Source: Candidatus Methylomirabilales bacterium
Lineage (GTDB): Bacteria > Methylomirabilota > Methylomirabilia > Methylomirabilales > CSP1-5
Assembly: GCA_050732295.1 (NCBI GenBank)
Contig: JBOHQS010000002.1
Span: 416 to 64,415 of the forward strand
Length of the DNA stretch: 64,000 nucleotides
Direction of reading: 5' to 3'
Part shown: positions 11,041-53,033 of the stretch, piece by piece
How positions within the stretch are numbered: position 1 is the stretch's first letter
Layout of the letters: each line of letters starts with the position of its first letter
The notes under the pieces: generated by a model
Database searches by the model: none
Seen by the model: only the letters and a program-made list of their open reading frames with translations
What the model was told of the DNA's origin: nothing
Position numbers and translations under genes: made by a program

Positions 11041-11153
11041 TTTTTCTCCCTCCGGAAGCGCCGCTCGATCATCCTTTCATGCGCAGCTCCCAATCAGCTT
11101 TCCGGTCTAGTTGCTCGAATTCTCCGACTGACAGAGACGACTCATTGGGGGGG

Positions 11154-13163: not shown

Positions 13164-13235
13164 CCCAGAGCCTCGTCCACCCTCCTCCGGGGACAGATAT
13201 GTGGGAGAAGAAACGGGATGGGCCCAATCCCCAGC

Positions 13236-37226: not shown

Positions 37227-37858
37227 GAGGATACCCGGCTCCCAAGGTAGCGGAAGAATGAATCCAGGACCTCGAGTCCCACGTCCTGGCTCTTCTCGGG
37301 GTGAAACTGCACCCCGAACAGCTTCCCGCGCTCGATAGCTGCCGGAATCGCCCGGCCGCTGTACTTAATGGTGGCCGCGATGTCTTGGCGGTCCGCGCAC
37401 TCCAGATAGTAGCTGTGCGCGAAGTAGAACGACTCGCCATCGCGGACCTTTGCAAACAGCACCCCGGGCTTGACGACGGCCGCATCGCACCAACCCATGT
37501 TGGGCACACGACATCCTTCTTCGGTCGCGTTGAGCCGCACCACGCGACCTTTGACGTAACCCAGGCCCTCATGCACGCCATGCTCCTCGCCCACCTCGGC
37601 GAGAAGTTGCATCCCCAGGCAGATCCCGAGGAGGGGCTTTTTCCCCTGGACGGCATGACGATGCAAGCCGTCCACCAATCCATGCTTCCGTAATGCGGCC
37701 ATCCCGTCCCCGAAGGCCCCAACCCCCGGAAGGATGACGGCGCTTGCCGCTTCGATGTCGCGGGCTTTCGTGGTCACCTGCACCCGAACCCCGACCCGCT
37801 CACACGCCTCCAGTACCGACTGAAGGTTCCCCATCTCCATGTCGATCATCGCGATCAC
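37223..37858 (-). CDS. hisH: HisH-like (WbuY-type) glutamine amidotransferase subunit
   Basis: 211 aa. MIDMEMGNLQSV; LPGVGAFG; catalytic GICLGMQLL; VQFHPEKS. 4-nt overlap with the HisF-fusion gene. Confidence 0.85.
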   Translation of the reverse strand: MIAMIDMEMGNLQSVLEACERVGVRVQVTTKARDIEAASAVILPGVGAFGDGMAALRKHGLVDGLHRHAVQGKKPLLGICLGMQLLAEVGEEHGVHEGLGYVKGRVVRLNATEEGCRVPNMGWCDAAVVKPGVLFAKVRDGESFYFAHSYYLECADRQDIAATIKYSGRAIPAAIERGKLFGVQFHPEKSQDVGLEVLDSFFRYLGSRVSS

Positions 37859-37892: not shown

Positions 37893-39302
37893 GGGATCCC
37901 TGATCCTCGAGATCCGCGGCCGTGTCACGGGTGCGAACTGAAACTGCACGAGGCCTTTGTCTCTGAACTTGAGGAGGTAACGGTACAGATGGTCAAACGG
38001 GACATCGTGCTTTTCGGCGATATCGAGGACCGTCCACGAGCCGTCGAAGTACCGCAGGAGCGAGTCGAGCAGGGTCCCCCATTTCTCGGAATCCGGCTCT
38101 AGAGGCTTATCGACGGCCGGATCGGGGCGCTCTTGATACAGGTCATATTCGGGGTTAGACAGACAGATGAGTCCGTCGAATGTCCGGTACAACGTGGCGT
38201 TGTGCTCGAGGATCTCGACGGCGCGGACGAAGACGCTATAGAACTCCGCGAGCTGATCCGCGCTCAGGATCTCCGGCGTATCGAGGCTGGAATGATACTC
38301 GCGATACGGCGAGAAGAGATCCCTGCTGCGGCTCACCTCCACGAACGGGACTTCGTACCCGGGCGCTTCCCACACCGTCTCGTCGTTGCCGGCTCCCCTC
38401 CGCCACGGCACGAACTCGTAGGCCTTGCAGTGGTGCCGGATGGCGTGCCGGAACACCTTGTCGATGTCCTGAGCGCCCAGGAACGACGATGCCAGCTTGA
38501 CGGGTCCGCTCGTTCCCGGCATCTCGGCGAACGCGCCACCGACAAACCGTTCGAGTTCCTCACGGTTCCGATTGTGGAGATAAAACACCGTCCCCACATG
38601 CTCGGGCCCGATCACGAGCCGATACGTGTAATAGGTCTTTTGCCGGTGCAACCACTGGAACAGCCGGATCAGGACTGCGACCCCGGCAAGGTCATCATTT
38701 GCCATATGCGGATGGCACGTATGGGCGTTGAAGACGATCGTCGCCCCCGACTCGCCCGGATGCTCGTATTCCCCGACCAGCATTTCCCCCGGTTCGTAGG
38801 TGGTCTCCAGATCGACGCGGTACCGCCCCGTCCCGAATGTCTTGTACACCTCGTAGGGTATGCAGAAGGCCCAATCCGCATCCCAGGGCCGGTACTGCCA
38901 CATGCAGTGGTACATGTGGGCCTGCGGCAGGTCCGGGTTCGTCACGACGTGCCGGTGCAGTTCCTCCCACTCAAGCTCGCCGTGAAAGGATTTCGAGTAG
39001 GTCGCAACTGCCAGGGTGTGGGTCCCGCCGTCGAAGACTTTTTTCCCCTCTTTCGTGATGGCCGCTTCCTTCACCTGCCATAGCTCCGGCACCACCCATC
39101 CGTTGAACGTTGATGCCGACGGGTATCGATACAACCTGATGGGCAATTCCCGCCCGATCCTTTCGAACAGACGCGCGTTGTCCGGTGCGACAACGCCCGT
39201 GGCGAACGCGCACAAGTCGGCCGTCAACGACAGGATCTCTCTTCCCTCGTCGGCCGTCATCCGCGTGAGATGGGAGTCAGAACTGGTTTCCTGGTGGGCC
39301 AT
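37869..39302 (-). CDS. Aminopeptidase-like (M28-fold) DUF4910/DUF2172-type protein with C-terminal winged-helix domain
   Basis: 477 aa. Recognised from memory of the COG4310-type architecture (…FNAHTCHPHMANDDLAGVAVL…; C-terminal WTVLDIAEKHDVPFDHLYRYLLKFRDKGLV). Function unknown. Confidence 0.5.
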   Translation of the reverse strand: MAHQETSSDSHLTRMTADEGREILSLTADLCAFATGVVAPDNARLFERIGRELPIRLYRYPSASTFNGWVVPELWQVKEAAITKEGKKVFDGGTHTLAVATYSKSFHGELEWEELHRHVVTNPDLPQAHMYHCMWQYRPWDADWAFCIPYEVYKTFGTGRYRVDLETTYEPGEMLVGEYEHPGESGATIVFNAHTCHPHMANDDLAGVAVLIRLFQWLHRQKTYYTYRLVIGPEHVGTVFYLHNRNREELERFVGGAFAEMPGTSGPVKLASSFLGAQDIDKVFRHAIRHHCKAYEFVPWRRGAGNDETVWEAPGYEVPFVEVSRSRDLFSPYREYHSSLDTPEILSADQLAEFYSVFVRAVEILEHNATLYRTFDGLICLSNPEYDLYQERPDPAVDKPLEPDSEKWGTLLDSLLRYFDGSWTVLDIAEKHDVPFDHLYRYLLKFRDKGLVQFQFAPVTRPRISRIRDPEGVRREG

Positions 39303-40519
39303 TAAACACTCTGCGTGGACATGAGGCGCTGCCGAATCGCCCGGAACACCTCCTCGAAGAGGAAAGACCGGCGAATGAGCTGCGAATCCAGTGACTCTTC
39401 TGCTACGCTCAGCAGCGCCCGGCGGAACAACTCGAAGCCGTAGTCGAGCTGCGGATCCCCGAGGTCACTCCTCCAACTGCAGTAATCGCGATGACTCCTC
39501 ACAATATATTCCAGAACGTCGCCATTCGGCCATCTGCTCTCACAATCCTCGAGTGGCTCGTAGCCAACGAGTTTCATGTCGGGACCGCAAAAACAATCCA
39601 CAACTTCAACAATTGTCGGATTTAATCTTGTCCGCCAGCGTTCTGCCCGATCCACGCTGATGCCCACCGTGACCTCTTCAAAACTACTATTTCCTTTCCA
39701 CACACTACCGGTAGCGAAATCGAAGTACTTACCTGTGTCCAACATTTCTGGCTTGAATTCAACATCAAGAAACTCACAGACCTCTCTTGCCCTTTTCTCA
39801 GGGTCTCTCACAAATTCCTCATGCTTCAAAACATAGATTCTGTCTTTAAACTGCTCGTCGTTTCGGTAATGTTCGCAGAACGCCACATACTTTCGCCAGT
39901 GGCGCGCATAAGATAGCACTTGTCCTACCTGTAAAGGATCAATCTTTACTACCCCCAACATTGAGTTGACGATGGCCCGAGGATCTCGAAGAATCACAAT
40001 AAACCGAGCCTCCGGATATGCACGAGCCAGGGGTCTGAAGAACTCGATTGTCCAAGCGTCCTTAATCCCAACCCACCTTCGGTCCTTAGCCTTTCGGGCT
40101 TCTGCAATGATCCGAAACGCGTTGTCAAACATTTCCTTATACGTTGACCCTCGAAGCTCGGAAAGATAGGGTATCAATTCGGCGCATTGGAGCTCGGCTC
40201 GCCGAACGCTCGATTGGAGAAACGGTTCCCACTCACTTGGATCGAAAGACATACTCAAATCACCAGCCTGGATGGTGTCCATAATTCGAATGCGTTCAGG
40301 TAGGAAGTAGTAATCCTGTATAGGTGAGCGGGGGTCGAACACGCATTGGATTTCAGGCGAAGCACCATATCGAACGAAGGCATTACGCAGGGACCGGAAA
40401 AGTTCGAGATATGGTTCGGATGCCACCATGACCTGGTTGTTAGCACTCAGCATCATACTTATCAGGTAACTGCCAGACCTTGCCGTACTAGTCATAAACA
40501 ATGGCAGACAGCCGTTCAT
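39302..40519 (-). CDS. Sulfotransferase-family protein
   Basis: 405 aa. 5'-PSB-like loop TSTARSGSYL; 3'-PB-like ILRDPRAIVNS; VLKHEEFVRDPEKRAREVCEFLDV. Confidence 0.7.
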   Translation of the reverse strand: MNGCLPLFMTSTARSGSYLISMMLSANNQVMVASEPYLELFRSLRNAFVRYGASPEIQCVFDPRSPIQDYYFLPERIRIMDTIQAGDLSMSFDPSEWEPFLQSSVRRAELQCAELIPYLSELRGSTYKEMFDNAFRIIAEARKAKDRRWVGIKDAWTIEFFRPLARAYPEARFIVILRDPRAIVNSMLGVVKIDPLQVGQVLSYARHWRKYVAFCEHYRNDEQFKDRIYVLKHEEFVRDPEKRAREVCEFLDVEFKPEMLDTGKYFDFATGSVWKGNSSFEEVTVGISVDRAERWRTRLNPTIVEVVDCFCGPDMKLVGYEPLEDCESRWPNGDVLEYIVRSHRDYCSWRSDLGDPQLDYGFELFRRALLSVAEESLDSQLIRRSFLFEEVFRAIRQRLMSTQSV

Positions 40520-41340
40520 GCTGAGTTGGCCCTTCCTTCGCCAGCGAGATCTACTTTTTCATTGTGCGTCGGAATCTCCACATGACCGCCCTCTACACGC
40601 CAAAGCGATCCGTAGCCCACAGTGCCAGCGGCAGGCTCTCCAGCTTTACTTATCCGCTTGCTCAGTATCGTAATGTGCCGCAGGACTGGATGCATGATAT
40701 AGAATGCATCACCAGCGTCAACGGGTTGCGACTTCGCAACAAACTCCCCCCTCACGCGATATTCCTCCAATACTCGAACCAACAGATCTGCCCGGATGTA
40801 AGGGTCATATCCGTAGTCGAGCGTCGTTAGATCACGCGGAGGCGGATATTCCTGCGTTGCGATGACCGGGCCTCGATCGATCTGCTCATTCAAGAGGATT
40901 GCTGAGGCACCACATGTCCCGGAGATCAGAAGACTGTAATAAATCGTCGTGCTTCCCCGGAAGTAGGGAGCCACACCAGCATGGATGTGCAGGAATTTCT
41001 TACCTGCACCCAGAATCTCTCTTTTCAGAATCCCACCGCTTGGCCCCGAATAAATCAGCACATTCACCGGGCACCTACGAACCGCAGCTAAGACCTCGGC
41101 GCCATTTACATCCTCCGTCTCCACAGCTTCATACGACAATCCCAGCTGCCGTATCGTCTCAAGCGCCGGCGTCACGTTGTCAAAATACGGCACCGCAGGA
41201 AACACAACCTCGCAATTTTCCCTTCTGCGGCTTAGGAAAATCACGTGCCCCGGTAGCAAATTATGCCGCTTCATCGCGCACAAATAGGCACGAGTCCTAC
41301 TTGACTCGACTGCCATCAAGCCAATGTCTTTCAGCAACAT
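40516..41340 (-). CDS. Formyltransferase-fold-like protein (tentative)
   Basis: 274 aa. FLHIHAGVAPYFRGSTTIYYSLL and NEQIDRGPVIATQ resemble the HxSLLPxxRG / DxGxD motifs of formyl transferases, but are not canonical. Confidence 0.35.
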   Translation of the reverse strand: MLLKDIGLMAVESSRTRAYLCAMKRHNLLPGHVIFLSRRRENCEVVFPAVPYFDNVTPALETIRQLGLSYEAVETEDVNGAEVLAAVRRCPVNVLIYSGPSGGILKREILGAGKKFLHIHAGVAPYFRGSTTIYYSLLISGTCGASAILLNEQIDRGPVIATQEYPPPRDLTTLDYGYDPYIRADLLVRVLEEYRVRGEFVAKSQPVDAGDAFYIMHPVLRHITILSKRISKAGEPAAGTVGYGSLWRVEGGHVEIPTHNEKVDLAGEGRANSA

Positions 41341-42023
41341 AGCACGATCCCGTGATCCGCAGCGAGCTCCTTCACCGCTTCCAACTCTGCCTCAACCGCC
41401 CCAAGCAACGTCAGCTGTGTCATAGGCCCCTCGCCAATAATACTTACAGAGCTGAGCAGATCAATTAATTTAAGAACCGAGTTAAGGTGCTTTATGCTCC
41501 GCTCTCCGTGGTACAGATACATCAGCAGACTGGCTAGGAGGGCATAATTCTCCAGCTGGTCATACTTCTTACTTGCTGGTTTCAACGCAGCCGAGTACGC
41601 AACATACAATCGTTTTTGGGTCTCATATTTCTTGACTAGCAAATCGATCCACGAGGCAAGCACTCCCACTGGTTCCTGCGTACTGTGGAGGAGAGCCTGC
41701 CAGAGGTCCAACAACAGCGATTTCGTGACAAACTCTCGAGATCCTGGCATTCCTGGTATCACCTCGGGGGACCTCTCGCGCAAGCCCGAGGGAACATCCG
41801 CCGGGAGCCTCTGTGAAACAGCGTGACGTATCTCCTCTGCGATTACCGTCTCGTTCGACGTTATCGCGCTTATGCTTGGCTGCGACTCTCTTAGCACGCT
41901 CCTCAAATTCTCACGTTGCGAAACGTAAGCACGCAAGAACTCCGGTCCCTCGTGCGGCGTATACATATAATCGCACCGGTCTACGAGCTGGCTTCTCTCC
42001 GTGTATCGGTACCTAAGATTCAT
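41331..42023 (-). CDS. Hypothetical protein
   Basis: 230 aa. ATGA overlap with the upstream kinase gene. Helical C-half. I recognise no motif. Confidence 0.5.
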   Translation of the reverse strand: MNLRYRYTERSQLVDRCDYMYTPHEGPEFLRAYVSQRENLRSVLRESQPSISAITSNETVIAEEIRHAVSQRLPADVPSGLRERSPEVIPGMPGSREFVTKSLLLDLWQALLHSTQEPVGVLASWIDLLVKKYETQKRLYVAYSAALKPASKKYDQLENYALLASLLMYLYHGERSIKHLNSVLKLIDLLSSVSIIGEGPMTQLTLLGAVEAELEAVKELAADHGIVLCC

Positions 42024-42544
42024 CTCGTTTCGGCAAACTTCGAATCTATCGCAGCCACAATCTGATCTGCGAGAGCCTCAGCCGAGACTCCTGAGTCATC
42101 ATTCTCTATTATTAGGTCCGACCATTTGGGGGGTGTGAAGGGAATATCGATTCCAACAACGTTAGCAAGCGTTCCGGCGAGCGCTCCGCTGTACAATCCC
42201 TTTTGGTCCCGCTGAATGAGGACTGACATCAGCACGTCTATGTAGACCTCAAAATAGCTTGAATAATTATGTCGATTCCACTCTTGCGTTTCGTGAAAAA
42301 GGGATAGAATTGCGCAGACAACATCAATTCCTTGACCGTCAAGAAACTGACAGAGACGGCAAACCCTCCATGCATTCGCCCTCCTATCTTCCAAGGAATA
42401 CCCGAGGTCGCTTCCCATGATGGCACGGACATGATCTCCATCAAGGAAAGCCACGTTTGGGCGGCGGGCTTTCAGTCGGGCATACACCTCCCGCCCAATG
42501 ACCGACTTCCCCGCGCCGGCGAGCCCAATCAGCCAAAGTACCAA
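42020..42544 (-). CDS. Adenylylsulfate-kinase homologue (CysC fold); by context a candidate CDP-amidate 3'-kinase (Cj1415 type)
   Basis: 174 aa. P-loop GLAGAGKS; LDGDHVR; LGYSLEDRRAN. Confidence 0.75.
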   Translation of the reverse strand: MVLWLIGLAGAGKSVIGREVYARLKARRPNVAFLDGDHVRAIMGSDLGYSLEDRRANAWRVCRLCQFLDGQGIDVVCAILSLFHETQEWNRHNYSSYFEVYIDVLMSVLIQRDQKGLYSGALAGTLANVVGIDIPFTPPKWSDLIIENDDSGVSAEALADQIVAAIDSKFAETR

Positions 42545-42547
42545 CTC

Positions 42548-43330
42548 CTATATCTCCTTCTGCCCGATGAACACTAGGACGTTGCAAAATTGGCGCGGGA
42601 ACACCCTGACCAGTATTCGGTCCAGAATACGCCCGATTCCGTTCAAACGATAGCCCTGTCCACGTCGATCGGTCTCATCTGCACTCCGACCACGGAACCA
42701 CGGAACGCGGAAGAGCAGGGAGAAGTTCCTTGCTCGATAAACTTGGTGAGTAACCAGACCATGGCGGCGAAGCACTTGCACGAATTCGCGTTCACCGACC
42801 TGCCACTTATGGAATTTCAAGTTTCCCTTGATATGTCGCCCATCTTTCAGCCACCACAACCACTCGTTAAGCCGCATCTCAAAGTTATCCGGCCGCATGG
42901 AGATGCAAAACCGACCGCCTATTTTCAGGCACCGTGCCGTCTCGGCAATGGCTCCGCCCATTTCCTCTTCGAGGTTGTGATACAGTCCAAAGGCCAGGAC
43001 TACGTCGAATTCATTGTTGGCAAACGGCATGTCCCGGACATCACCCAAGCGGACATCGAGAGCAGGATTCTCGCACTTCAATTGGTCCACGGCGACTTTG
43101 CTGGTCTCCAATCCTGTAATGCTGTAGCCAGCGTAATGATAATGCTTTGTTATCCGCCCCAATCCAGCGCCTATCTCTAAGACTCGATCGCCTTGACCTT
43201 TGATAACGAGCTCGGCATACTTGATCGGGTAAATGTTCAGGTCCGAGAACCGATCAGGATCGCGGCCTGCTTCTTTCCATCGCCGGTCCCAGTAATCGCG
43301 ATTGTCCTCGAAACGAAAACCCTTCTTCAT
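42548..43330 (-). CDS. Class I SAM-dependent methyltransferase
   Basis: 260 aa. Motif I VLEIGAGLGRITKHY; FDVVLAFGLYHNL. Confidence 0.8.
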   Translation of the reverse strand: MKKGFRFEDNRDYWDRRWKEAGRDPDRFSDLNIYPIKYAELVIKGQGDRVLEIGAGLGRITKHYHYAGYSITGLETSKVAVDQLKCENPALDVRLGDVRDMPFANNEFDVVLAFGLYHNLEEEMGGAIAETARCLKIGGRFCISMRPDNFEMRLNEWLWWLKDGRHIKGNLKFHKWQVGEREFVQVLRRHGLVTHQVYRARNFSLLFRVPWFRGRSADETDRRGQGYRLNGIGRILDRILVRVFPRQFCNVLVFIGQKEI

Positions 43331-43351
43331 CGCGAATCCTAACGCACGAAT

Positions 43352-44119
43352 TTATCTCTTAATTCGACCGCCTTCCAGGAGGCTCGAAGCTACCTGCAGG
43401 TCATATAGGCTGTCGATTTCCAGCCAGCCCCCAGATACAGGCACTGAATTCACGGAGTAGCCCAGATCGATCATGGCCTGTAGCAAATCCGTTACAAAGA
43501 GATTGCGCAATGGCCGACTCCCACTAAACGGCAATCGTCCCGCCTCCTCATCTCTAAGGGCAATAGCGTACGTCTGCCGAAGTGCATCTACCCCCGATTC
43601 TCGAAACGCCACCAAGCCAATATATTGACCGTCGATATGCGTGACGTCCTTCTCAGGTTGACCTATGCTTCGGATGCGCCCCGTCTCGTCCATCCGCAGA
43701 CTTTCCGCGTCGCTAAGTGGATCGTTAAACCGCAGTCTCCAGTAATCAAGCCAATTTCGATCTACTACGACCGCGACAGGAGCCTCGTTGACCAGCAGGG
43801 CTCGGAGCACGCTCACGTCATACACAACGTCTGCGTAAGATAAGACGAATCCCCGACCAAAGGATGATTCAGCACAGAACAAGCTGTAAACCATATTGGT
43901 TGAATCGTAGTCCTGGTTGATCACCAGACGCAGGCCAGGCCGTTGTAGCCGTTCAGCCATATGGCCGCCGACGACTACGACCTCGGGAATCCCCACCTTC
44001 TCCGCGGCTTCCAACTGCCAGTCGAGCAATGAACGACCGCCCAGCTCAATGAGGCACTTCGGAGAGGAATCGGTCAAGGGGCGCAACCGCGTACCCCGGC
44101 CGGCGGCCAGAATAATCAT
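43352..44119 (-). CDS. Nucleotidyltransferase (LicC / Cj1416-like cytidylyltransferase)
   Basis: MIILAAGRGTRLRPLTDSSPKCL. ATG 44119 forms an ATGA overlap with the upstream stop (track start 44137). Confidence 0.8.
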   Translation of the reverse strand: MIILAAGRGTRLRPLTDSSPKCLIELGGRSLLDWQLEAAEKVGIPEVVVVGGHMAERLQRPGLRLVINQDYDSTNMVYSLFCAESSFGRGFVLSYADVVYDVSVLRALLVNEAPVAVVVDRNWLDYWRLRFNDPLSDAESLRMDETGRIRSIGQPEKDVTHIDGQYIGLVAFRESGVDALRQTYAIALRDEEAGRLPFSGSRPLRNLFVTDLLQAMIDLGYSVNSVPVSGGWLEIDSLYDLQVASSLLEGGRIKR

Positions 44120-44778
44120 TCGCATTTCGCCAGCCAATCCTCCAGCAAAGCCCGATCCAAGTCAGCAGCTGGGTTCTCGCGCTCAGGATGCCACTGAACT
44201 GCCACGATCGGCAGATTAGGATGGTACAACCCTTCGATGACGCCGCCAGTGGCAATCGCAAACGTTCTCAGGTCGGGCGACAAACCATCCAATAAGACGC
44301 CCTGTTTGTGGTAAGAGTTCGTTATGACATCCTGGAAAGCCTCCATGCTCCGACACGGCCGCGCCACGATTTCTATCGGGTGATGGACGTTCACATGTGC
44401 AGCAATCCGCCCCAAATCACGGACCACCCTTCCCCCAAAGTAGCTATTAATCACGTGCAGTCCACGGCACACACCAAATATGGGCACTCGATTCCTCAGC
44501 CCAGCGTCAAGCAGTGCAATCTCTGTACTGTCCCGCGGACTGGCGGTATTTCCCTCAGCCTCACCTGGCAGCGGACCAACGTCGTTTCCACCCGTGAGAA
44601 GCAAACCCTGGGGGCGCAAGGTTTCAAGGTAACGCGCTGGATCACACAGGGAGTTCGGGATCAATACCGGAGTTACCCCCAACCGGTCTAAGGTTTTAAC
44701 CCAGTCGTGACTGATTGCGTCACGCATCTCGAAGTATTCGTCGTTAACCGTAATTCGCATTGAAAGGGCAATTATCAT
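44116..44778 (-). CDS. Class I glutamine amidotransferase / peptidase C26 (gamma-glutamyl hydrolase type; Cj1417-like)
   Basis: PIFGVCRGLHVINSYFGG (Cys nucleophile); VAVQWHPE. ATG 44778 forms an ATGA overlap (track start 44808). Confidence 0.8.
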   Translation of the reverse strand: MIIALSMRITVNDEYFEMRDAISHDWVKTLDRLGVTPVLIPNSLCDPARYLETLRPQGLLLTGGNDVGPLPGEAEGNTASPRDSTEIALLDAGLRNRVPIFGVCRGLHVINSYFGGRVVRDLGRIAAHVNVHHPIEIVARPCRSMEAFQDVITNSYHKQGVLLDGLSPDLRTFAIATGGVIEGLYHPNLPIVAVQWHPERENPAADLDRALLEDWLAKCE

Positions 44779-47700
44779 CCTATGGCTCGCACTATCTTGT
44801 TTCCACAATCAAGCTCGATCATTCCTGCGTGGCGTAGGCGCTCGAAAATGACCTCCCCACAACCAATCGCCCCAGGCAACCCAAACTCCGCTGCACGGAT
44901 TGCCATGTGAGACCCCGCACCCCCATATTGGGTAATCAGCCCTGCGATGCGATGACTGAAAATCCAGTCGTAACCTGGATCAGCCGCCCGAATCAGTACA
45001 ATTTTCCCCTCTAACAGCACTCTGGGGACACTACCCTCAATAGCAATCACAGGGGCTACGACCCGCTTCGTGGAAATGAAGTTTGCCGCCCACTCCTCAA
45101 GCCGAAACGCCATGATATCATCTACCGACCGCACCAAATGCGGCAGTCGAAGACTGGAAGTTAAGTTCCACCTCTTTTTCTGAAGCTCAATCGTCCGTCG
45201 AAACCCTGTCCGCACGGCACTACTCAAGCTGTCAGTTGCGTAGCTGAGAATCGTATCGATCGGAAGAAAGGAAATCTCTTCCCGTGAAAAGCCAAGTGCC
45301 TCGCCTAGCTGCGCTATCGCCTCAAGGGATGCGTTTAAGGACTTCGTGAATTCAAATTTGGCCCATTCACGTCCAGCGATGCTCGAAAAAACAAAGTCCC
45401 GCACATCGGCCACAGTCGCCCTGAATGCCAAGCTATGGAGCAAGTTCTCAATCTCCGTGGCACGCGCATCAAAGATCTCCATTCCTCGTTGCAGGTCGGG
45501 GTATCTCGTGGTCCCTTCCTTCACCCCTGCAGGGTTGAAGTACGTATCCCAGGCGTTCGCATAATTTGGCGAGGTGACATCAAAGGACCCTGGTCGGAGG
45601 TGCCCATACCGTTCGAGAAGCTCGCTCTTGGAAAGCCGTCCCGCCGCCTCTTCCCCTAGGTCACGCGTCAGCTCTGACGCGACCGTAGGTATCGATCCCA
45701 AGAGCTCTTCGCACTCTCCCTCAGAGAAAACACCAACTTTCCGAAGAGACCGCAGGATCGACATCGCAATGAACGCATATCGGGCCAGGATCGCGAACGG
45801 CAATGTCCCGAATCGTTCACAATCAGCCAAAAGCATGTGGATTCGACGTGCGACTGCCGAACAGCCGGAGTCAGGACTTGCCAGCCAGCGCTGGCGTCTA
45901 GAAGCAAGCAATTGCAGTTGCTCTTTCTGTGAGTTAACCGATGCAGAACCACCTGCAAATACCCCATCAGTCAAACGAAGGAGTTGCTGCCGAAATTCTG
46001 TACTTTCAGCTTGATTGAGACCTGCTTCACGAAGGCGACACAATTGATTATCAAAATCGAAACTCAGGCACGTAATTGCAACCTCGAACTCGATCTTGTC
46101 ATGAAGATGTGGCTTTTCGGTGAGCAAATGTAAACAGTGATTTATCCAAGGCTCCGCTATTCCCTCAGGCAGGGCGCCCGGTAGGAAAGAATTCAGGCTT
46201 GCCCGGACATCCACATAGGGCCTTCCCCCGAGGGAGACTATCAGAGGCTCAGGACACACATCTCGGTAGCCAATGAGTGCCCGTGCCGTTGCCCAGGTGC
46301 GGCTGCCTATCAAGCGCTGAAACAATGAAAGTGCCAAAGGCCGAGGTGTAGCGCCAATTAATTCGGCAGGATTCCAATCAGGCATAGTACCGAAGACGGT
46401 CGTATTGCCCGCTAACGTGGGATGAGGTCTCAGATGCGCCCGGAGAAATTCCGAAATGTGAAAGAGCTCCTCGAACAAATCGTCGTCTGCCAATTCAAAC
46501 TTTCTCGCACGTTTTGAAATGGGTCGAACCTGAAAGAGGTACGTAGTACCCGCTCGGTCGATCCCAAACTCGATATCGAGATCATCTAGGTGAGTGAGCT
46601 CCTCCAGCTCGCGTCCCAGTTTTGCAGACGCCCGCACATCTGCGTCAAGCCGTGTGCAATCGTCATGGCGCGGAATGTAAAAGGTCTCGGAGTTGCATGC
46701 CTTACCCGAGGTAATCAGGTCCGACCGCCCGGAAGAGCGGTCAATATTCAGTACGTAATACGGGGCCCCCGTTTCTATGTCCCTGGTGAGCAGAACGCCG
46801 CTGACCGCGAGATCCCGCAACTGAGGTTGGACCAATACTTCGTCCTTGCGGTGCAAGATTCGGCCTGAGCTTTGGTAGCTCCTCACTACCTTATCCACCG
46901 CTTCCCGCAAACAGTCTGCCAAATCGACCGGCACATCGAGAACGCTCTCGAAGCGTCCGGCAGCAGATTCCTCGAGCCCGTCCTCTGAGTGAGCACAACT
47001 CCGAACCACGACATTATTGTCCGAGAAGGCTTCTTGAACCCTTCCAATAATCGAATCAGGATCATCCAGCCAGTCGGATGCCCTGAACCGTACCTGGTCC
47101 AGCACCACGGCACTCTTAATGAGGGGCGCAACCTGCTCAAGCGTTCTCCCCTTCCCTCCGAACACTGTACGGGCCACTGCAACAGGATCATGCACTGGGG
47201 CAACAAGACCATCGAGATTAAGTCTGTGTACCGGCAGTCCTTCTGCTGCCATCGTCGATAACCATTGCTCCAGATCGGCAGTCATGTCTTGCTGTGTCAT
47301 TGACTCCGCTATCGAGAATGCCCTGGACGCGTAAGATGCGGGAAGCGCTATGAGGCCAGCGAAGCACTCCAATGAACCATCCAAATAGTAGGCGGCAGGC
47401 AAACCCCCATCCTCAATAAGCAGCTGTCGAAGTGCTTCCGGGACGCAAATTGTGCTCGAACGTATGATTAGACAATCATTTGTGACGGTGGGACGCGCAA
47501 GGCGCAATCCAACTAATTCCCCTTCGCCTCTCCAGCGGGCATGAAATCGATATCGCATATCAGGATATCGCTCGATAACCTTCTGGATATGGTACCCTCC
47601 GATGTACGTAATATCTTCGATGCTCCAGCTAGAGAGCGCGTGGAGGACCCAATCGAGAACGGTGCGACTGGACTCAACGGATCGCAATGAGGTGGGGAAA

Positions 47701-47819
47701 CTACGCGTATTGTCCAGTCGCCGCGTTCCTCGCCGGGAATCAATTATGACGGCGCAGAGGCCGACCCTTCCCAATTCAGGCATTCTTCTTGGACCAAGCC
47801 CTTTCGACCCACCAGCCAT
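44775..47819 (-). CDS. PEP-utilising / pyruvate-phosphate-dikinase-like phosphotransferase with N-terminal degenerate nucleotidyltransferase-like domain (Cj1418-like candidate L-glutamine kinase)
   Basis: 1014 aa. ATP-grasp PPDK_N features FGGKGRTLEQV, VVVRSCAHSEDGLEESAAGRFESV. C-terminal swivel-His motif ITQYGGAGSHMAIRAAEFGLPGAIGCG. Confidence 0.75.
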   Translation of the reverse strand: MAGGSKGLGPRRMPELGRVGLCAVIIDSRRGTRRLDNTRSFPTSLRSVESSRTVLDWVLHALSSWSIEDITYIGGYHIQKVIERYPDMRYRFHARWRGEGELVGLRLARPTVTNDCLIIRSSTICVPEALRQLLIEDGGLPAAYYLDGSLECFAGLIALPASYASRAFSIAESMTQQDMTADLEQWLSTMAAEGLPVHRLNLDGLVAPVHDPVAVARTVFGGKGRTLEQVAPLIKSAVVLDQVRFRASDWLDDPDSIIGRVQEAFSDNNVVVRSCAHSEDGLEESAAGRFESVLDVPVDLADCLREAVDKVVRSYQSSGRILHRKDEVLVQPQLRDLAVSGVLLTRDIETGAPYYVLNIDRSSGRSDLITSGKACNSETFYIPRHDDCTRLDADVRASAKLGRELEELTHLDDLDIEFGIDRAGTTYLFQVRPISKRARKFELADDDLFEELFHISEFLRAHLRPHPTLAGNTTVFGTMPDWNPAELIGATPRPLALSLFQRLIGSRTWATARALIGYRDVCPEPLIVSLGGRPYVDVRASLNSFLPGALPEGIAEPWINHCLHLLTEKPHLHDKIEFEVAITCLSFDFDNQLCRLREAGLNQAESTEFRQQLLRLTDGVFAGGSASVNSQKEQLQLLASRRQRWLASPDSGCSAVARRIHMLLADCERFGTLPFAILARYAFIAMSILRSLRKVGVFSEGECEELLGSIPTVASELTRDLGEEAAGRLSKSELLERYGHLRPGSFDVTSPNYANAWDTYFNPAGVKEGTTRYPDLQRGMEIFDARATEIENLLHSLAFRATVADVRDFVFSSIAGREWAKFEFTKSLNASLEAIAQLGEALGFSREEISFLPIDTILSYATDSLSSAVRTGFRRTIELQKKRWNLTSSLRLPHLVRSVDDIMAFRLEEWAANFISTKRVVAPVIAIEGSVPRVLLEGKIVLIRAADPGYDWIFSHRIAGLITQYGGAGSHMAIRAAEFGLPGAIGCGEVIFERLRHAGMIELDCGNKIVRAIG

Positions 47820-47855
47820 ATGTGCGTGCCTAACGCAATACTCCGTGCGCAGGTG

Positions 47856-48674
47856 TTACGGAATCAGGAACCCTCGCAGCGTGAACTTCGTGCTCGGCTC
47901 ACGGAGCCGCTCGATCACGCGGATATTGAGCCCGGCGCGGGCGGCGAGGAGCGCGAGTGACGCAGCGCTGAAGACGTGGTGATGATCAATGAAGAATTCC
48001 TCACGGCCCGGGCCCCCATGAACGGCCGCTTCGCCATCCGGCACCTCGACGTAGACCAAGCCCCCGGGATGCAGAAACTTGACGGCTCGGGCGAGCATTC
48101 CAATCGGATCCTTGACGTGCTCGAGGACCTTATTGAAGGTCACGACGTCGTATTGTCCGACGTCCTCGATGGCCGCGAAATCACCGCAGATCCCTCGGAC
48201 CCCGACCACATCCTGCGCATGGGCAACGAGCCGTGGATCGCGATCGAGCGCCGTCCCGTCCCACCCGGCGGTCTTCATGCGGTGCAGGAACACGCACAGG
48301 CCCGACCCGACGTCGAGCACCGTCGGCGCTCGACCCTCCCGGGCTGGGGCCGCGAGATGGTGCCCCGCGAAATCCAGTATCCGCCGCACCCGCCCCACGT
48401 TGTCGGACTGCTCCGGCGGCAGCGACACGATCCGCTCAAAGGCCTTGTGGATGCCGGCCCTTCCGTAATTCGCGCTGACATACTCCTCCCGGTAGAGCCC
48501 CGTATCGTCCATGGCGTGCACCGAGACGAAATGACTGCACACGGGGCACCGCAGAACCTCACGGCGGTACTCTGCGACCGCGCTGAACTGGAAGCGCACC
48601 TCGCCTGCGGGTGGCGCATCATACGTGAACGCCGTCGTCCACTCCTTACCGCCGCACAGGCAGCGCGGGTTCAC
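47856..48674 (-). CDS. Class I SAM-dependent methyltransferase with N-terminal zinc ribbon
   Basis: CLCGG...CPVCSH; motif I VLDVGSGLCVFLHRM. I prefer GTG 48674 (GTGA overlap with the upstream stop). The track start at 48743 would overlap by 73 nt. Confidence 0.75.
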   Translation of the reverse strand: MNPRCLCGGKEWTTAFTYDAPPAGEVRFQFSAVAEYRREVLRCPVCSHFVSVHAMDDTGLYREEYVSANYGRAGIHKAFERIVSLPPEQSDNVGRVRRILDFAGHHLAAPAREGRAPTVLDVGSGLCVFLHRMKTAGWDGTALDRDPRLVAHAQDVVGVRGICGDFAAIEDVGQYDVVTFNKVLEHVKDPIGMLARAVKFLHPGGLVYVEVPDGEAAVHGGPGREEFFIDHHHVFSAASLALLAARAGLNIRVIERLREPSTKFTLRGFLIP

Positions 48675-49069
48675 CGATCCCCCTCGTCGGACAATCGAAC
48701 CCTGGCCTCCAGGCGCTCGAGCGCCCCGCTTTCGTCGAGCCACGACACCACCGTGAGCCGCTCATCGGCGACGTACCGCTCGAAGGCCGCTTCCTGGCCA
48801 CGCTCGACCAGGAGGACAAAGTACTGCTCGATCCGGTTCTTCACCAGCACGCCCCGCAGGCCGAACCGTTGCAGTCGTCCGTTCAGCGACGGCGTCGCGT
48901 AAAACCCCCACACCTTCCGGGCCACGTCGTACTCGGCCCCCGAGGGTGTCGTGAAGGTCACCTGTTCATCCGGGTCCAGCTCGACGCGGCCGCAATCCTT
49001 GAGGCGAATCTTCTCTTCCCCGTGGCCCACGTCGAACACGCGCGGCGGATCGACCGGCGTGAACTTCAT
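48671..49069 (-). CDS. Hypothetical protein
   Basis: 132 aa from ATG 49069 (ATGA overlap; track start 49111). I recognise no motif. Confidence 0.5.
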   Translation of the reverse strand: MKFTPVDPPRVFDVGHGEEKIRLKDCGRVELDPDEQVTFTTPSGAEYDVARKVWGFYATPSLNGRLQRFGLRGVLVKNRIEQYFVLLVERGQEAAFERYVADERLTVVSWLDESGALERLEARVRLSDEGDR

Positions 49070-50184
49070 ATCCAATTCCAATCCGGGATCAGGAATCCCT
49101 CGATCATCCACTTCCCATCACGGCGCATCCAGATGTCCCGATTCCTGAATCGCTCGATCACGTCGAAGAAGTGCGCCTCGGTGATCCCGACGAACCGACA
49201 GAACTGGCCGATGTCCTCATGAGGAGTTTCGTCGCCCCGTTTCCGCAGGACCTCGATGGCCTCTTCCCGCGTCATCCGCCCGTTCCGGATCTCCAGCGAC
49301 AGGTTGTCGAACGTGCGCGTGAAGCCGAATTTGTACCACTTCAGCCAGTGGTGGATCGAGATGAAGTCATCGTCGATGTCGGCATAGTCGTAGTACCCGG
49401 TCTTCGGCCCCTCCGGCCGAGGCTCGAAGCCGTGCGCCCTGGCGACGGCGAGGCTCGTTTCCGGATCCCAGGGGAAGTAGAACCCCAGGAAGACGGCGAG
49501 GATCTCTTTGGCAGCCAGCTCCTCTTCGGGTGGTCCGAAGTAGGGGGTCAGCTCTCTTTCCGACAGCTCTCCCGAGATCCAGTCGCGCGCCGTCGTACCG
49601 TGCGTGACGCCGTATTTACTCAGCCAGGCACGGTCCAACCGGAAGCCGTGGAGGGTATCCTCATCGCCGCCATACTCCACGGCAGAGTTCTCGCCCCACA
49701 CCACCAAGGGGATGTTGAACCTGACCGCGATCGTCAGCGGGATGTTGAACAACGCCAGATGCATCGGGATGGCCGGGCTTCCGTACCGGATCAGCGCCCG
49801 ATACATAAACTTCCGCTCCACCTTGGGGTTGATCTGATAATCAACATGGTCCACGCCCAAGCCGACCAGATTGGCCAGGTTCCTCGCGCCGATCTCCGTG
49901 CGAGCCGGTGTCTTCCAGGTCACCGCCAGCGGGTTCAACCCGTATTCGAGGCACTTCACCACCTGCCAGGTGCTGTCCTTACCCCCACTCACGGGCACCA
50001 GACAGTCGTAGCCCCGGCTCCGCGCCCTGGCCCGCCCCACGACCTCTCGGAACGCCCGCTCACGCACGGCCCAGTCGATCTCGCGCCGCATCCCGTGCGC
50101 TACGCAGGCGTTACACACCCCCTCCTCGTTCAGCCGGATGTTCGGCCGGGTAGAGGGCGTGATGCACCGGGCGCAGTATCTCAT
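49066..50184 (-). CDS. N-acetyl-sugar amidotransferase (PseA/WbuX/LfnA PP-loop family)
   Basis: MRYCARCITPSTRPNIRLNEEGVCNAC; LVPVSGGKDSTWQV. ATG 50184 forms an ATGA overlap (the track start at 50193 is a GTG). Confidence 0.8.
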   Translation of the reverse strand: MRYCARCITPSTRPNIRLNEEGVCNACVAHGMRREIDWAVRERAFREVVGRARARSRGYDCLVPVSGGKDSTWQVVKCLEYGLNPLAVTWKTPARTEIGARNLANLVGLGVDHVDYQINPKVERKFMYRALIRYGSPAIPMHLALFNIPLTIAVRFNIPLVVWGENSAVEYGGDEDTLHGFRLDRAWLSKYGVTHGTTARDWISGELSERELTPYFGPPEEELAAKEILAVFLGFYFPWDPETSLAVARAHGFEPRPEGPKTGYYDYADIDDDFISIHHWLKWYKFGFTRTFDNLSLEIRNGRMTREEAIEVLRKRGDETPHEDIGQFCRFVGITEAHFFDVIERFRNRDIWMRRDGKWMIEGFLIPDWNWI

Positions 50185-52013
50185 CCCGCACACTCTTCCA
50201 GAAACATCTTGCTGCTCAGAAACGAAAAGAGGAACTTGCTTTCGCTGTTCGGCAGATCAGTTTTCGCGATCAATTGCTCGATGCGGTTCCGCCGGACGTG
50301 CTCGAAGATCGGGCTCTCGTCGAGCAGACAGGCGCGGACCTCGGGATCAGCCACGTCGAGAAACGAAAAGATTGGGGCGTTGAATCCCACCTTCCGTGGA
50401 TTGTCGAGGATGCGCTGGGGCACAATGCCGCGCATCGCATCGCGCAGCACGACCTTGGCGAGGCCCCGGCGAATCAGGTGCCGTGAGGGGATGCGGTAGC
50501 AGAATTCAAACAACGCCCGATCCAGGTAGGGCGACCGATTTTCGATGGAGAAGTACATGGCGTTCAGGTCGTCCTCGTGCAGGATCACCGGGACGGCCTC
50601 GTGGAACATCTCGTTCAGCATTCGGTTGCGCAGAAGGCTGCCGACGTAGTGACGCTCGTTGAACGGCTCCGACCACTCCACTTTCAGGGTACGGGCGAAT
50701 TCATTGGCGCCCAGATAGATGTGGTCCCGCATCGCCGGATTCTCGATGAACAGGTCGGGATTCTGCAGGTACGGGTTCCGCACAAACGGCTTCACCACCT
50801 GCAGCCACGCCTCTCGCGCGCTCTTGGAAAGCTCTCGATCATCCCGGATCTCGTAGAAGTAGGCGAGGTGATGGTCGAAATAGCCGGTGAAGAGCTCGTC
50901 GGCCGCGGTGCCGCTGACGGCTATCCGGTACCCGTGGGCGGCGATCAGCTCCATCAGCAGCCAGTGTGCGAAGTAGGTAATGGTGTAGACCGGGGCGTCG
51001 TGCTGACGCACCAGGGTCCGCAATTTCGGCAGGAAATCTTTCGTGTCCACGGGAATCGAGGTGTGGCGGATCCCAAGCGCGGCGACGGCGTGCTCCACCA
51101 TATCCTGCTCTTCGTACCGCGCGTCGGAGTTGGCGATGGTGAAGCCGTGGACGTCATACCCGCAGACGTTCTTCGCGATGCTGATCAACGAATTGGAGTC
51201 CACGCCTCCGCTCATGCAGAACGCGAGGGGGACGTCGGCTCGGAGGCGCAGCTTGACGGCCCGGATCAACCTCTCGCGCACCCCCGCCACCGCCTCCGCG
51301 TAGGTCATCCCCTGGTCCACGACGCAGCGCGGCTGCCAGTATTTCTGTGTCTCTTCCCGACCCGCGGCGTCGATCCGCAAGAGGGAGGCGGGGGGCAGCT
51401 CGGAGAGGCCCTGAAAAAAGGTGTGATCCTCCTTGTAGAGCGCCTTATATCCGTTGACCAGGAAACGATAGATATGCTCGACGTTGACGGGAAGCCGTCG
51501 CCCAAGCAACGCAACGATGAACTTGATCTCGGAGCCGAAGGTGAGTCCCGTCTCATCCCGATACAGGTAGAGCGGCTTCTCCCCGAAACGATCACGGCAC
51601 AACGTGAGCGATCCGTCCGTCTCGTCATGAAGGGCGAAGGCCCACATCCCCTCGCACCGGTCGAGCACGGGCCACCCGAAGTGGTCGATGGCCTGCAAGA
51701 GGACTTCGGTGTCCGAGGTCGTCCTGAACGGGACCCCCTGCTTCGTCAACCCTTCGCGCAGCTCGACATAGTTGTACAGCTCGCCGTTGTAGACCAGCCA
51801 TTGCGTGCCGATCTGGAACGGCTGGTTGGCCCGCTCGTCGAGGTCGATAATGCTCAACCGGGAATGGAGGAGGTAGACATTTCGGCCGGCGGAATTGACC
51901 CAGTGCCGTGAGGCTGCATGATCCGGACCTCGCCGACCCATCAGGCGGAGACACGCCTCAATGCGATCCGGGGTAACCTGTCGTGCGCCGAAGTATCCCG
52001 CGATCCCGCACAT
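50181..52013 (-). CDS. asnB: Asparagine synthase (glutamine-hydrolysing)-family amidotransferase
   Basis: 610 aa. MCGIAGYFG; YNGELYN; SGGVDSN. Confidence 0.85.
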   Translation of the reverse strand: MCGIAGYFGARQVTPDRIEACLRLMGRRGPDHAASRHWVNSAGRNVYLLHSRLSIIDLDERANQPFQIGTQWLVYNGELYNYVELREGLTKQGVPFRTTSDTEVLLQAIDHFGWPVLDRCEGMWAFALHDETDGSLTLCRDRFGEKPLYLYRDETGLTFGSEIKFIVALLGRRLPVNVEHIYRFLVNGYKALYKEDHTFFQGLSELPPASLLRIDAAGREETQKYWQPRCVVDQGMTYAEAVAGVRERLIRAVKLRLRADVPLAFCMSGGVDSNSLISIAKNVCGYDVHGFTIANSDARYEEQDMVEHAVAALGIRHTSIPVDTKDFLPKLRTLVRQHDAPVYTITYFAHWLLMELIAAHGYRIAVSGTAADELFTGYFDHHLAYFYEIRDDRELSKSAREAWLQVVKPFVRNPYLQNPDLFIENPAMRDHIYLGANEFARTLKVEWSEPFNERHYVGSLLRNRMLNEMFHEAVPVILHEDDLNAMYFSIENRSPYLDRALFEFCYRIPSRHLIRRGLAKVVLRDAMRGIVPQRILDNPRKVGFNAPIFSFLDVADPEVRACLLDESPIFEHVRRNRIEQLIAKTDLPNSESKFLFSFLSSKMFLEECAG

Positions 52014-52022
52014 CAGCCGCCC

Positions 52023-53033
52023 CTACTCCACGTCTGCCGGGAGAATCGGTTCCCCGAACGCCACGGCCCGCCTGAGTCGTTTCCCCACGACCCGCGCTTC
52101 CTCGCCGGGCGGAAGCCCGGTGGCCGGGCGAATCCAGGTCAGATCCTCGAATCGGACCCGGTGGCCGGCCGGCAGATCCGCCCCGGCGACGATCGAGCGG
52201 CGGGCCAGGCGCGCGGACTCTGCCTCGGCTGCTTGAACGATCTTCTCGCCGGTCCCGAGGAGCCCTTCCGTCTCGGCCACCCGGGCAACCAAGTCCCCCA
52301 TCTCCACCGGATCCGCCGAAAGTTGGTGATCACGAAAGTCGGAGTACTGCTTGTCGAGGGTGAAGTGTTTCTCGATAATCCGCGCCCCGAGCGCCGCGCC
52401 GATCACGCACGCCTGAATGCCCAAGGTATGGTCGGAATAGCCCACGGTACACTCGAGCTCACGAATCAGCATGGGGATCGCCCCGAGGTTCGCCTGTTCC
52501 GGGGGCACGGGATAGCTGCTCACACAGTGCAGCACGGCCAGATGCTGCTCCACGCCGCGCTTCCGCCATTGTGCCTCAATGAACGCCTTGGCTCTCCGGA
52601 TATGGTTGAGGTCGCTCAGGCCGGTCGAGAGGATGAGCGGCTTCCCCGTTCGGCAGACGCGGTCCATCAACGGGTAGAAGTTGTTGTCGCCAGAGGCGAT
52701 CTTGTACGCGTCGACGATACCCTCCAGGAAGGCCGCGCTCTCCAGATCGAGAGGGGTCGCGATGAAGAGGAGGCCGAGCGACTTGGCCAGCCGGTGCAAT
52801 TCCTCGAACTGCTCGTACGACAGCTCGAACGAGGACAGCCGATCGTAGCGGGCTCGATCTCCCGCACTCACGAAATACCTCGCCCGGAAGACCTGGAACT
52901 TCACCGCCCCGACGCCGCACGCGGCCGCCTCACCCACCAACTTTTGTGCGGTCGCGAAATCTCCCTCATGGTTATTGCCGATCTCGGCAACGACCAATAC
53001 CTTCTGCGTGAGATTGAATCCACCGATCTTCAT
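52023..53033 (-). CDS. Second NeuB-family nonulosonic-acid synthase with SAF domain
   Basis: 336 aa. VVAEIGNNHEGDFATAQKLVGEAAACGVGAVKFQVF. Confidence 0.85.
   Translation of the reverse strand: MKIGGFNLTQKVLVVAEIGNNHEGDFATAQKLVGEAAACGVGAVKFQVFRARYFVSAGDRARYDRLSSFELSYEQFEELHRLAKSLGLLFIATPLDLESAAFLEGIVDAYKIASGDNNFYPLMDRVCRTGKPLILSTGLSDLNHIRRAKAFIEAQWRKRGVEQHLAVLHCVSSYPVPPEQANLGAIPMLIRELECTVGYSDHTLGIQACVIGAALGARIIEKHFTLDKQYSDFRDHQLSADPVEMGDLVARVAETEGLLGTGEKIVQAAEAESARLARRSIVAGADLPAGHRVRFEDLTWIRPATGLPPGEEARVVGKRLRRAVAFGEPILPADVE

Follow-up and report, generated by a model that had tools for sequence, protein, structure and literature searches.

Which product is made by a run of genes that places a putative glutamine kinase, an amidotransferase, a nucleotidyltransferase and a kinase resembling adenylyl-sulfate (APS) kinase inside the glycan operon of a methane-cycle Candidatus Methylomirabilales bacterium? 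The question is raised by the window analysed here, a stretch of 64 kb of contig JBOHQS010000002.1 (assembly GCA_050732295.1), for which an original prediction had proposed a donor pathway like that of Campylobacter jejuni. In that organism the O-methyl phosphoramidate (MeOPN) group depends on Cj1418-Cj1415, which are L-glutamine kinase, gamma-glutamyl-CDP-amidate hydrolase, CTP:phosphoglutamine cytidylyltransferase and cytidine diphosphoramidate 3'-kinase; its locus also encodes the methyltransferases Cj1419/1420 and the genetically defined transferases Cj1421/1422 (PMC3907429; PMC6429109). The best explanation for the Methylomirabilota locus, to which a probability of roughly 0.7 can be given, is that an acquired eight-gene cassette, set in an ABC-transporter-dependent glycan operon, makes a Campylobacter-type activated phosphoramidate donor and probably attaches it to the glycan as well.

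The six open reading frames (ORFs) named in the original prediction are all present on the minus strand, including the motifs quoted for them, and belong to a continuous run of ORFs from 39.3 to 48.7 kb. The gene calls of the public contig CDHSPF010000037.1 (GCA_975253645.1, a metagenome-assembled genome, MAG, of Candidatus Methylomirabilales) match their sizes and show an identical gene order, and the 174-aa kinase has a counterpart of 100% identity in 'MAG: Candidatus Methylomirabilales bacterium'. Positions, strand and motifs were hence confirmed by the window sequence and by the public gene calls. The features are the following.

47856-48674, minus strand: upstream class I methyltransferase, 272 aa, which adjoins the cassette and is not a member of it
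44775-47819, minus strand: GlnK, L-glutamine kinase homologue, 1014 aa, with pseudo-nucleotidyltransferase, PPDK_N ATP-grasp and swivel phospho-His domains
47175-47819, minus strand: N-terminal extension of GlnK, residues 1-215, a degenerate paralogue of the adjacent cytidylyltransferase
44116-44778, minus strand: GATase, class I glutamine amidotransferase / peptidase C26, 220 aa, candidate gamma-glutamyl-CDP-amidate hydrolase
43352-44119, minus strand: NTase, COG1213/LicC-type nucleotidyltransferase, 255 aa, candidate CTP:phosphoglutamine cytidylyltransferase
42548-43330, minus strand: MT260, class I S-adenosylmethionine (SAM) methyltransferase, 260 aa, which lies within the cassette and may methylate the phosphoramidate or its nucleotide donor
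42020-42544, minus strand: kinase of APS-kinase fold, 174 aa, candidate NDP-amidate 3'-kinase
41331-42023, minus strand: U230, a 230-aa protein without family, conserved partner just 5' of the FMT-like gene
40516-41340, minus strand: FMT-like, protein of the formyltransferase superfamily, 274 aa, with invariant H118-x-H120 and D155
39302-40519, minus strand: sulfotransferase-fold protein, 405 aa, last gene of the low-GC3 island described below, candidate phosphoramidate transferase

The GlnK/GATase and GATase/NTase junctions are 4-nt ATGA overlaps, and the remaining junctions among the six named genes are gaps of 36, 21 and 3 nt, in agreement with the earlier statement that all of them are ATGA overlaps or gaps under 40 nt. 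Along the order GlnK, GATase, NTase, methyltransferase and kinase, neighbouring cassette genes either share an ATGA overlap or lie no more than 21 nt apart. The coupling goes on downstream, with an ATGA overlap between the kinase gene and U230, a 10-nt overlap between U230 and the FMT-like gene, and a further ATGA between the latter and the sulfotransferase-fold gene.

The 1014-aa protein matches the NCBIfam model NF004508/PRK05849 with 815.8 bits (cutoff 501) over residues 216-1012, as against the 15-43 bits obtained with the models for PEP synthase, PigC and rifampicin phosphotransferase, whose cutoffs lie at 600-1700. Pfam PPDK_N and PEP-utilizers also match it, and the PDB returned weak swivel-domain matches alone. 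The swivel histidine is H971 in GGAGSHMAIRAAEFGLP and is invariant in 18 homologues; homologues at 42-46% identity carry the JGI name 'glutamine kinase'. We take NF004508 to be the Cj1418 family and NF004041, the model matched by the 174-aa kinase, to be the Cj1415 family, an equation to which the JGI names lend indirect support.

The distribution of the genes was followed in the best 80 loci (numbered with an L) out of at least about 590 stretches that carry a GlnK relative among species-representative genomes, one genome being taken per species. The alignment of GlnK to NF004508, a model of 789 positions, begins only at residue 216, and the residues before it, 1-215, were matched to the NTase family by hhalign with a probability of 99.9% and an E-value of 2.7e-31 over 194 columns. 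This N-terminal copy, probably a docking or regulatory domain, has SRRGTRRLD where the GxGTR motif would stand and no longer has the PK lysine. Such an extension is present in 42 of the 80 loci, and glutamine kinases occur in three forms: bare (about 790 aa), fused to a pseudo-NTase (about 1000 aa, as here) and fused to the 3'-kinase (about 975 aa). A GlnK with a degenerate cytidylyltransferase copy at its N-terminus is a new feature. In a Helicobacteraceae MAG (L022:10010-13048) the same domain retains the canonical LAAGDG...PKCL motif, and L012, L048 and L054 have no NTase-like match besides the GlnK N-terminal domain; the fused domain may therefore be a working cytidylyltransferase in some lineages.

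The second protein, GATase, belongs to Pfam Peptidase_C26 (2e-30), and its top NCBIfam match is the Cj1417 equivalog NF045546, which aligns over the full length with 90.2 bits and an E-value of 1.8e-25, under a cutoff of 250; the PuuD model gives 53 bits. The catalytic cysteine lies in FGVCRGLH (residues 101-108) and the His-Glu pair in VQWHPE (194-199). Its gene is immediately 3' of GlnK in 71 of the 80 loci. The third, NTase, matches Pfam NTP_transf_3 (6.6e-18), has LicC as its best PDB match (1jyk, 9e-18), carries the canonical LAAGRGTRLRPLTDSSPKCL motif and is encoded next to GlnK/GATase in 75 loci. The order GlnK-GATase-NTase thus recurs in 71-75 of 80 unrelated genomes, which is far beyond chance.

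The 174-aa kinase is the protein on which a reading in terms of sulfur could be built. It retains the P-loop GLAGAGKS and the DGD motif, matches Pfam APS_kinase with 1.9e-32, and is named 'adenylyl-sulfate kinase' by NCBI. These features would suit a cassette with two functions, in which the kinase is an APS kinase whose product, 3'-phosphoadenosine 5'-phosphosulfate (PAPS), serves the 405-aa protein in the sulfation of a glycan, and GlnK, GATase and NTase make CDP-amidate, or some other CDP compound, that is used without 3'-phosphorylation. Against this, the kinase passes the NF004041 model (173.5 bits, cutoff 127) and fails that of apsK, TIGR00455 (121 bits, cutoff 138.7). It has LSLFHETQEWNR in place of ISP(Y/H) and NVVG in place of GFTG, in common with the clade of GlnK-linked kinases, where LSLFHExQxWNR and NVVG stand at the sites at which APS kinases have ISP(Y/H) and GFTG. 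The phylogeny was addressed with a neighbour-joining tree (200 bootstraps) of the GlnK-linked kinases of 40 other genomes, Escherichia coli CysC and five structurally characterised APS kinases. In 196 of the 200 bootstraps the GlnK-linked enzymes, the one in the window included, formed a clade apart from the six bona fide APS kinases, and the window kinase is 31-35% identical to APS kinases and 49% (median) to cluster-linked kinases. JGI gives the name 'cytidine diphosphoramidate kinase' to at least 12 of the homologues at 53-68% identity. Moreover, MAGs of Bryobacterales, Eremiobacteraceae, Acidobacteriaceae, Binataceae and proteobacteria (L047, L053, L062-L064, L066, L069-L074, L076, L077 and L080) have the kinase domain joined N-terminally to GlnK in a single ORF of about 975 aa, so that several phyla join this kinase physically to glutamine kinase. 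The protein is therefore predicted to be a 3'-kinase of APS-kinase fold and not a true CysC; the NCBI name is probably a misannotation, and in the public MAG record it would wrongly point to sulfur metabolism.

The four-enzyme set and its order were in this way supported by family models, synteny and the kinase tree. The best homologues of GlnK, GATase and the kinase fall outside the PEP synthase, PuuD and CysC groups, and LicC, named beforehand as a competing assignment, is the best PDB match of NTase, whose sequence does not tell which substrate it takes.

A pathway of six steps can be proposed, the first four from homology to the C. jejuni enzymes and the last two from comparative genomics alone. 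GlnK, with ATP and the swivel His971, would phosphorylate L-glutamine on its amide nitrogen; NTase would couple the product with CTP to give CDP-L-glutamine; and GATase, with its Cys-His-Glu triad, would cleave this compound to glutamate and cytidine diphosphoramidate. The 174-aa kinase would then phosphorylate the 3'-OH, creating a cofactor that resembles PAPS, from which the sulfotransferase-fold protein may move the amidophosphoryl group onto a sugar hydroxyl. Finally, the methyltransferase of the cassette may methylate the amidophosphoryl group or its nucleotide donor.

The middle of this scheme is where another outcome would branch off. The pathway could end at, or be diverted from, a CDP-amino-acid donor, comparable to the CDP-threonine of Clostridioides difficile, and install phospho-glutamine or another phosphodiester-linked group. 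COG1213 nucleotidyltransferases take many phospho-substrates (PMC12275187), the methyltransferase gene directly follows that of NTase in the cassette, and CDP-N-methylthreonine is methylated on the nucleotide before it is transferred (10.64898/2026.02.12.704994). Such an outcome is nonetheless quite improbable. The Cj1417-like hydrolase is conserved in 71 of the 80 loci and its triad is intact here, which argues for cleavage of CDP-glutamine to the amidate; besides, the 3'-kinase has no role in a route of the Fta type and the window has no TagF-like gene.

The extent of the cassette is marked by composition. The GC content at third codon positions (GC3) is 0.53-0.62 in the eight consecutive genes that begin with GlnK and end with the sulfotransferase-fold gene (39302-47819), as against 0.77-0.85 in the flanking genes on either side; the sulfotransferase-fold gene itself has 0.55, like the cassette and unlike the flanks. 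An Anaerolineales MAG has the same 7-8 genes in the same order, its proteins being 45-64% identical to those of the window, and this order is also common to loci of Planctomycetota, Chloroflexota, the candidate phyla radiation (CPR) and proteobacteria. The compositional and syntenic unit is hence an eight-gene island at 39302-47819, which includes three downstream genes that the original prediction had left outside. The sharp GC3 island and the conservation of gene order in distant lineages suggest that the whole cassette was acquired horizontally and inserted into the glycan operon recently. The methyltransferase at 47856-48674, initially counted with the unit, does not belong to it: its GC3 of 0.80 matches the host flank and a homologue adjoins the pathway in just one of the 80 loci (L005). 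The downstream DUF4910 gene was likewise rejected as a member on its flank-like GC3 and lack of conservation. Between the upstream methyltransferase and a WbuX gene there is a 132-aa ORF without family match (48671-49069), with a homologue in one other locus (L005).

An island of foreign composition could also have landed in a glycan operon by accident and make a soluble P-N natural product, or modify a lipid or a protein; the lipid-type enzyme, a CDP-alcohol phosphatidyltransferase, that follows the cassette in L044 would suit this possibility. It is very improbable, given that glycan genes (NeuB, WbuX/Z, AsnB-like, flippases and ABC exporters) surround the cassette in nearly all loci and that in the window the cassette is co-directional and translationally coupled with the operon.

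The phosphoramidate pathway is not confined to this genome. The best 80 loci come from Chloroflexota, Planctomycetota, Acidobacteriota, Cohnella, Desulfovibrio, CPR, Haloferax elongans and DPANN archaea and, among Proteobacteria, from Legionella septentrionalis, Marinobacter, Bosea, Rhodoferax and Magnetovibrio blakemorei. A phmmer search with the glutamine kinase against 1.84 billion cluster representatives matched 1,524 clusters at E <= 1e-30. The rarity implied by the original prediction, which had regarded the genes as a surprise in an unrelated lineage, did not survive these matches (at least about 590 stretches and 1,524 clusters) or the earlier proposal of such a cluster in Borg elements. 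The cassette is real but not unique, and the pathway is widespread and partly auto-annotated; the find is therefore less exceptional than was first thought. A viral origin was considered and discarded, IMG/VR holding a single full-length GlnK relative, on a giant-virus MAG contig (L084, GVMAG-M-3300009496-9; 27% identity, residues 23-1008).

Within the cassette, MT260 (Pfam Methyltransf_11, 2.3e-17) is nearer to the cluster-linked methyltransferase family c5 (E 6.6e-13) than to the other methyltransferases of the window. It is kept inside the cassette in seven other loci; its position is the same in L003/4, L008 and L018, and it lies elsewhere in the locus in L010 and L026. Methyltransferases of this type are confined to kinase-bearing loci. 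MT260 is thus a better candidate than the upstream methyltransferase for adding a methyl group like that of MeOPN. Its action on a nucleotide-bound intermediate would be feasible, since in C. difficile CDP-N-methylthreonine receives its methyl group on the nucleotide, ahead of transfer (10.64898/2026.02.12.704994).

U230 gave no match in Pfam, NCBIfam or the PDB, a profile search against the PDB included, and its AlphaFold2 model, built without an alignment, was unusable (pLDDT 38.6). In at least 21 of 27 loci its gene comes directly before the FMT-like one, and a Magnetococcales MAG (L045) has it fused to the kinase gene. The FMT-like profile matches Fmt (6.7e-12), sugar N-formyltransferases and PseJ in the PDB; it has an invariant HxH, H118-x-H120, where the Fmt superfamily has NxH, and D155 is invariant too. 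The gene is present in 27-29 of the 80 loci, with or without the kinase. The two proteins appear to form a pair that belongs to the pathway.

The transfer step has not been reconstituted even in C. jejuni as of 2025 (PMC12409886). In the window the candidate is the 405-aa protein, which matches Pfam Sulfotransfer_3 (5.1e-23), has TPST1/2 and the CurM sulfotransferase (ST) as best PDB matches, and keeps intact both the 5'-phosphosulfate-binding motif (5'-PSB) TARSGSY (residues 12-18) and the 3'-phosphate-binding motif (3'-PB) RDPRAIVNS (178-186). The fold does not tell which group is transferred. A scan of every ORF in the loci with hidden Markov models found sulfotransferase-like genes in 20 of 39 loci with a cluster-type kinase versus 1 of 32 without it (p = 5e-6, a statistic that ignores shared ancestry), and DPANN and CPR are represented among the positive loci. 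TagF-like genes (Glyphos_transf) show the converse distribution, being present in 18 of 30 kinase-less loci (for example L014, L015, L019, L023-L028, L033, L036, L052, L061 and L079) versus none of 41 kinase-bearing loci; the 64-kb window has no TagF-like match. In C. difficile a TagF-like enzyme transfers the phospho-group from a CDP-X donor, as shown for CDP-N-methylthreonine (10.64898/2026.02.12.704994; PMC10714395). As sulfotransferase-like genes track the kinase and TagF-like genes its absence, two delivery routes are proposed, and the pattern fits them: CDP-amidate would be used by a TagF-like enzyme and 3'-phospho-CDP-amidate by a sulfotransferase-fold enzyme. Family c24, with P-loop-like GxGR and YRHPLDSLL motifs, was dropped as a further sulfotransferase-like group, as it has no Pfam match and no profile similarity to the confirmed ones.

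Some of the kinase-less loci with TagF-like genes also hold a membrane sulfatase/EptA-like protein and a YidC-like protein. In a Planctomycetales MAG the CDP-alcohol phosphatidyltransferase-family gene (L044:9051-9830) lies directly after the FMT-like gene, an arrangement suggestive of a lipid acceptor or else of a third transferase type.

The alternative of two functions, with genuine sulfation, has to be weighed again at this point, as the 405-aa protein keeps PAPS-type motifs and resembles TPST and CurM ST, and kinase and sulfotransferase-like genes co-occur across loci. On the other side, no cysD, cysN, ATP sulfurylase or sulfate permease/transporter was found among the window ORFs scanned with Pfam over the 64 kb, and the genuine sulfation cluster of C. 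jejuni HS:19 carries cysD, cysN and a sulfate permease (PMC8743553). In addition, TagF-like transferases are absent from all kinase-bearing loci, and therefore the CDP-amidate made by the other three enzymes would have no user. Together with the separate clade of the kinase and its fusions to GlnK, this makes the sulfation alternative unlikely. The complete proposal around the phosphoramidate donor comprises transfer by a sulfotransferase-fold enzyme from 3'-phospho-CDP-amidate, as occurs with PAPS, a kinase-less version served by TagF-like enzymes, and tailoring by U230 and the HxH FMT-like protein; taken jointly, these three elements are offered tentatively, as a possibility more doubtful than probable.

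Several observations weigh against the assignment of the cassette to phosphoramidate synthesis and transfer. The putative orthology with the C. jejuni enzymes draws on family models, names and synteny, not on pairwise comparison. A homologue search that started from an AT-rich Helicobacteraceae glutamine kinase had no Campylobacter protein among its best 120 matches, and the clusters of ten proteins of about 780 aa contained no named member from Campylobacter. GATase stays far under the NF045546 equivalog cutoff, at 90 versus 250 bits. For NTase there is no model specific for the Cj1416 type, the nearest solved relative is LicC, and the COG1213 family is substrate-promiscuous (PMC12275187). 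The co-occurrence of kinase and sulfotransferase would be equally expected from genuine PAPS sulfation; the contingency tests ignore phylogeny, and many kinase-bearing loci are from Acidobacteriota. Finally, about half of the kinase-bearing loci have no sulfotransferase-like gene within 10 kb.

The surroundings of the cassette are those of a surface glycan. The window consists of one long minus-strand glycan operon, and of the 'LptD/Wzm-Wzt' context described earlier the exporter stood and LptD did not: there is no LptD-like ORF in the 64 kb, where every real ORF of at least 600 aa fell to another family. The exporter genes and two sets of nonulosonic-acid genes have these positions.

59021-59866, minus strand: Wzm, ABC exporter
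57701-58987, minus strand: Wzt, ABC exporter
52023-53033 and 23038-24063: two NeuB-type synthases
21887-23056: a NeuC-type hydrolysing epimerase
57000-57722 and 21161-21883: two CMP-sugar synthetase-like genes

Beside a CMP-sugar synthetase lies a possible nonulosonic-acid transferase, a 580-aa protein (19429-21171) with only a weak Capsule_synth (KpsC/KpsS-like) match and no NCBIfam match. Two WbuX-type N-acetyl-sugar amidotransferases, one of them a WbuZ/HisF-like fusion of 715 aa, and HisH are encoded at 35079-37226, 37223-37858 and 49066-50193; this WbuX/WbuZ/HisH set is acetamidino-sugar machinery and lies on both sides of the cassette. The operon also has four paralogous AsnB-like glutamine-dependent amidotransferases (11154-13163, 17486-19426, 29854-31704 and 50181-52013). 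An 856-aa plus-strand ORF at 10983-13553, antisense to a strongly supported AsnB gene, is probably spurious. DegT and GNAT proteins, a dozen methyltransferases, several GT4 glycosyltransferases and an initiating Bac_transf fusion complete the set.

The phosphoramidate of Campylobacter glycans affects phage recognition and serum resistance. Phosphoramidate glycan chemistry has been demonstrated only in that genus (PMC6429109; PMC3907429), and the roughly 1,500 relatives of the glutamine kinase suggest that the modification is a common one among bacteria and archaea of the environment. If the complete proposal given above is true, P-N-modified surface glycans would be widespread, and so far unseen, in bacteria as well as archaea, with DPANN, CPR, Haloferax and Legionella among them. 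Moreover, the split between loci with kinase and sulfotransferase-fold enzyme and kinase-less loci with TagF-like enzyme provides a concrete, testable transferase candidate.

Comparison with known systems locates the cassette among four of them. With the PAPS system, represented by CysC together with TPST and CurM ST, it shares the APS-kinase fold, P-loop and DGD of the kinase, the sulfotransferase fold with 5'-PSB and 3'-PB motifs of the 405-aa protein, and the logic of a 3'-phosphorylated nucleotide with a transferable group on the 5'-phosphate. It differs in that the window kinase belongs to a separate clade, lacks ISP and GFTG and is fused elsewhere to glutamine kinase, in that no sulfate-activation genes were found in the window, and in that the proposed group is an amidophosphate and the nucleotide cytidine. 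The FtaABCD system for the Type A flagellin glycan of C. difficile also has a COG1213 nucleotidyltransferase, a SAM methyltransferase acting on a CDP-bound group and a dedicated sugar-decorating transferase (10.64898/2026.02.12.704994), and TagF-like genes accompany the kinase-less relatives of the window cassette. Fta, however, has no glutamine kinase, amidotransferase, 3'-kinase or P-N bond, and the window no TagF-like gene.

For Borg elements of Methanoperedens a MeOPN-like cluster of four genes has been proposed (10.1101/2024.11.05.622173), which likewise places, on structure and homology, enzymes of the Cj1418/1417/1416 type outside Campylobacter and in a surface-glycan region. Compared by description only, it differs in its host, in the fusion of one Borg nucleotidyltransferase to PEP mutase and in that no link to a 3'-kinase or sulfotransferase was reported.

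The closest likeness is with the MeOPN locus of C. jejuni. The window differs from it by the extra pseudo-NTase domain at the N-terminus of GlnK, by a methyltransferase inserted between NTase and kinase, and by three extra conserved genes, those of U230, the FMT-like protein and the sulfotransferase-fold protein, which have no known counterpart in the capsule locus of strain NCTC 11168; its exporter is Wzm/Wzt instead of Kps, and its host belongs to Methylomirabilota. Both loci nevertheless have the same four enzyme families in the order GlnK, GATase, NTase and kinase, with a linked class I methyltransferase and within a surface-polysaccharide locus, and the names 'glutamine kinase' and 'cytidine diphosphoramidate kinase', given by JGI to homologues of the window proteins, independently support this correspondence.

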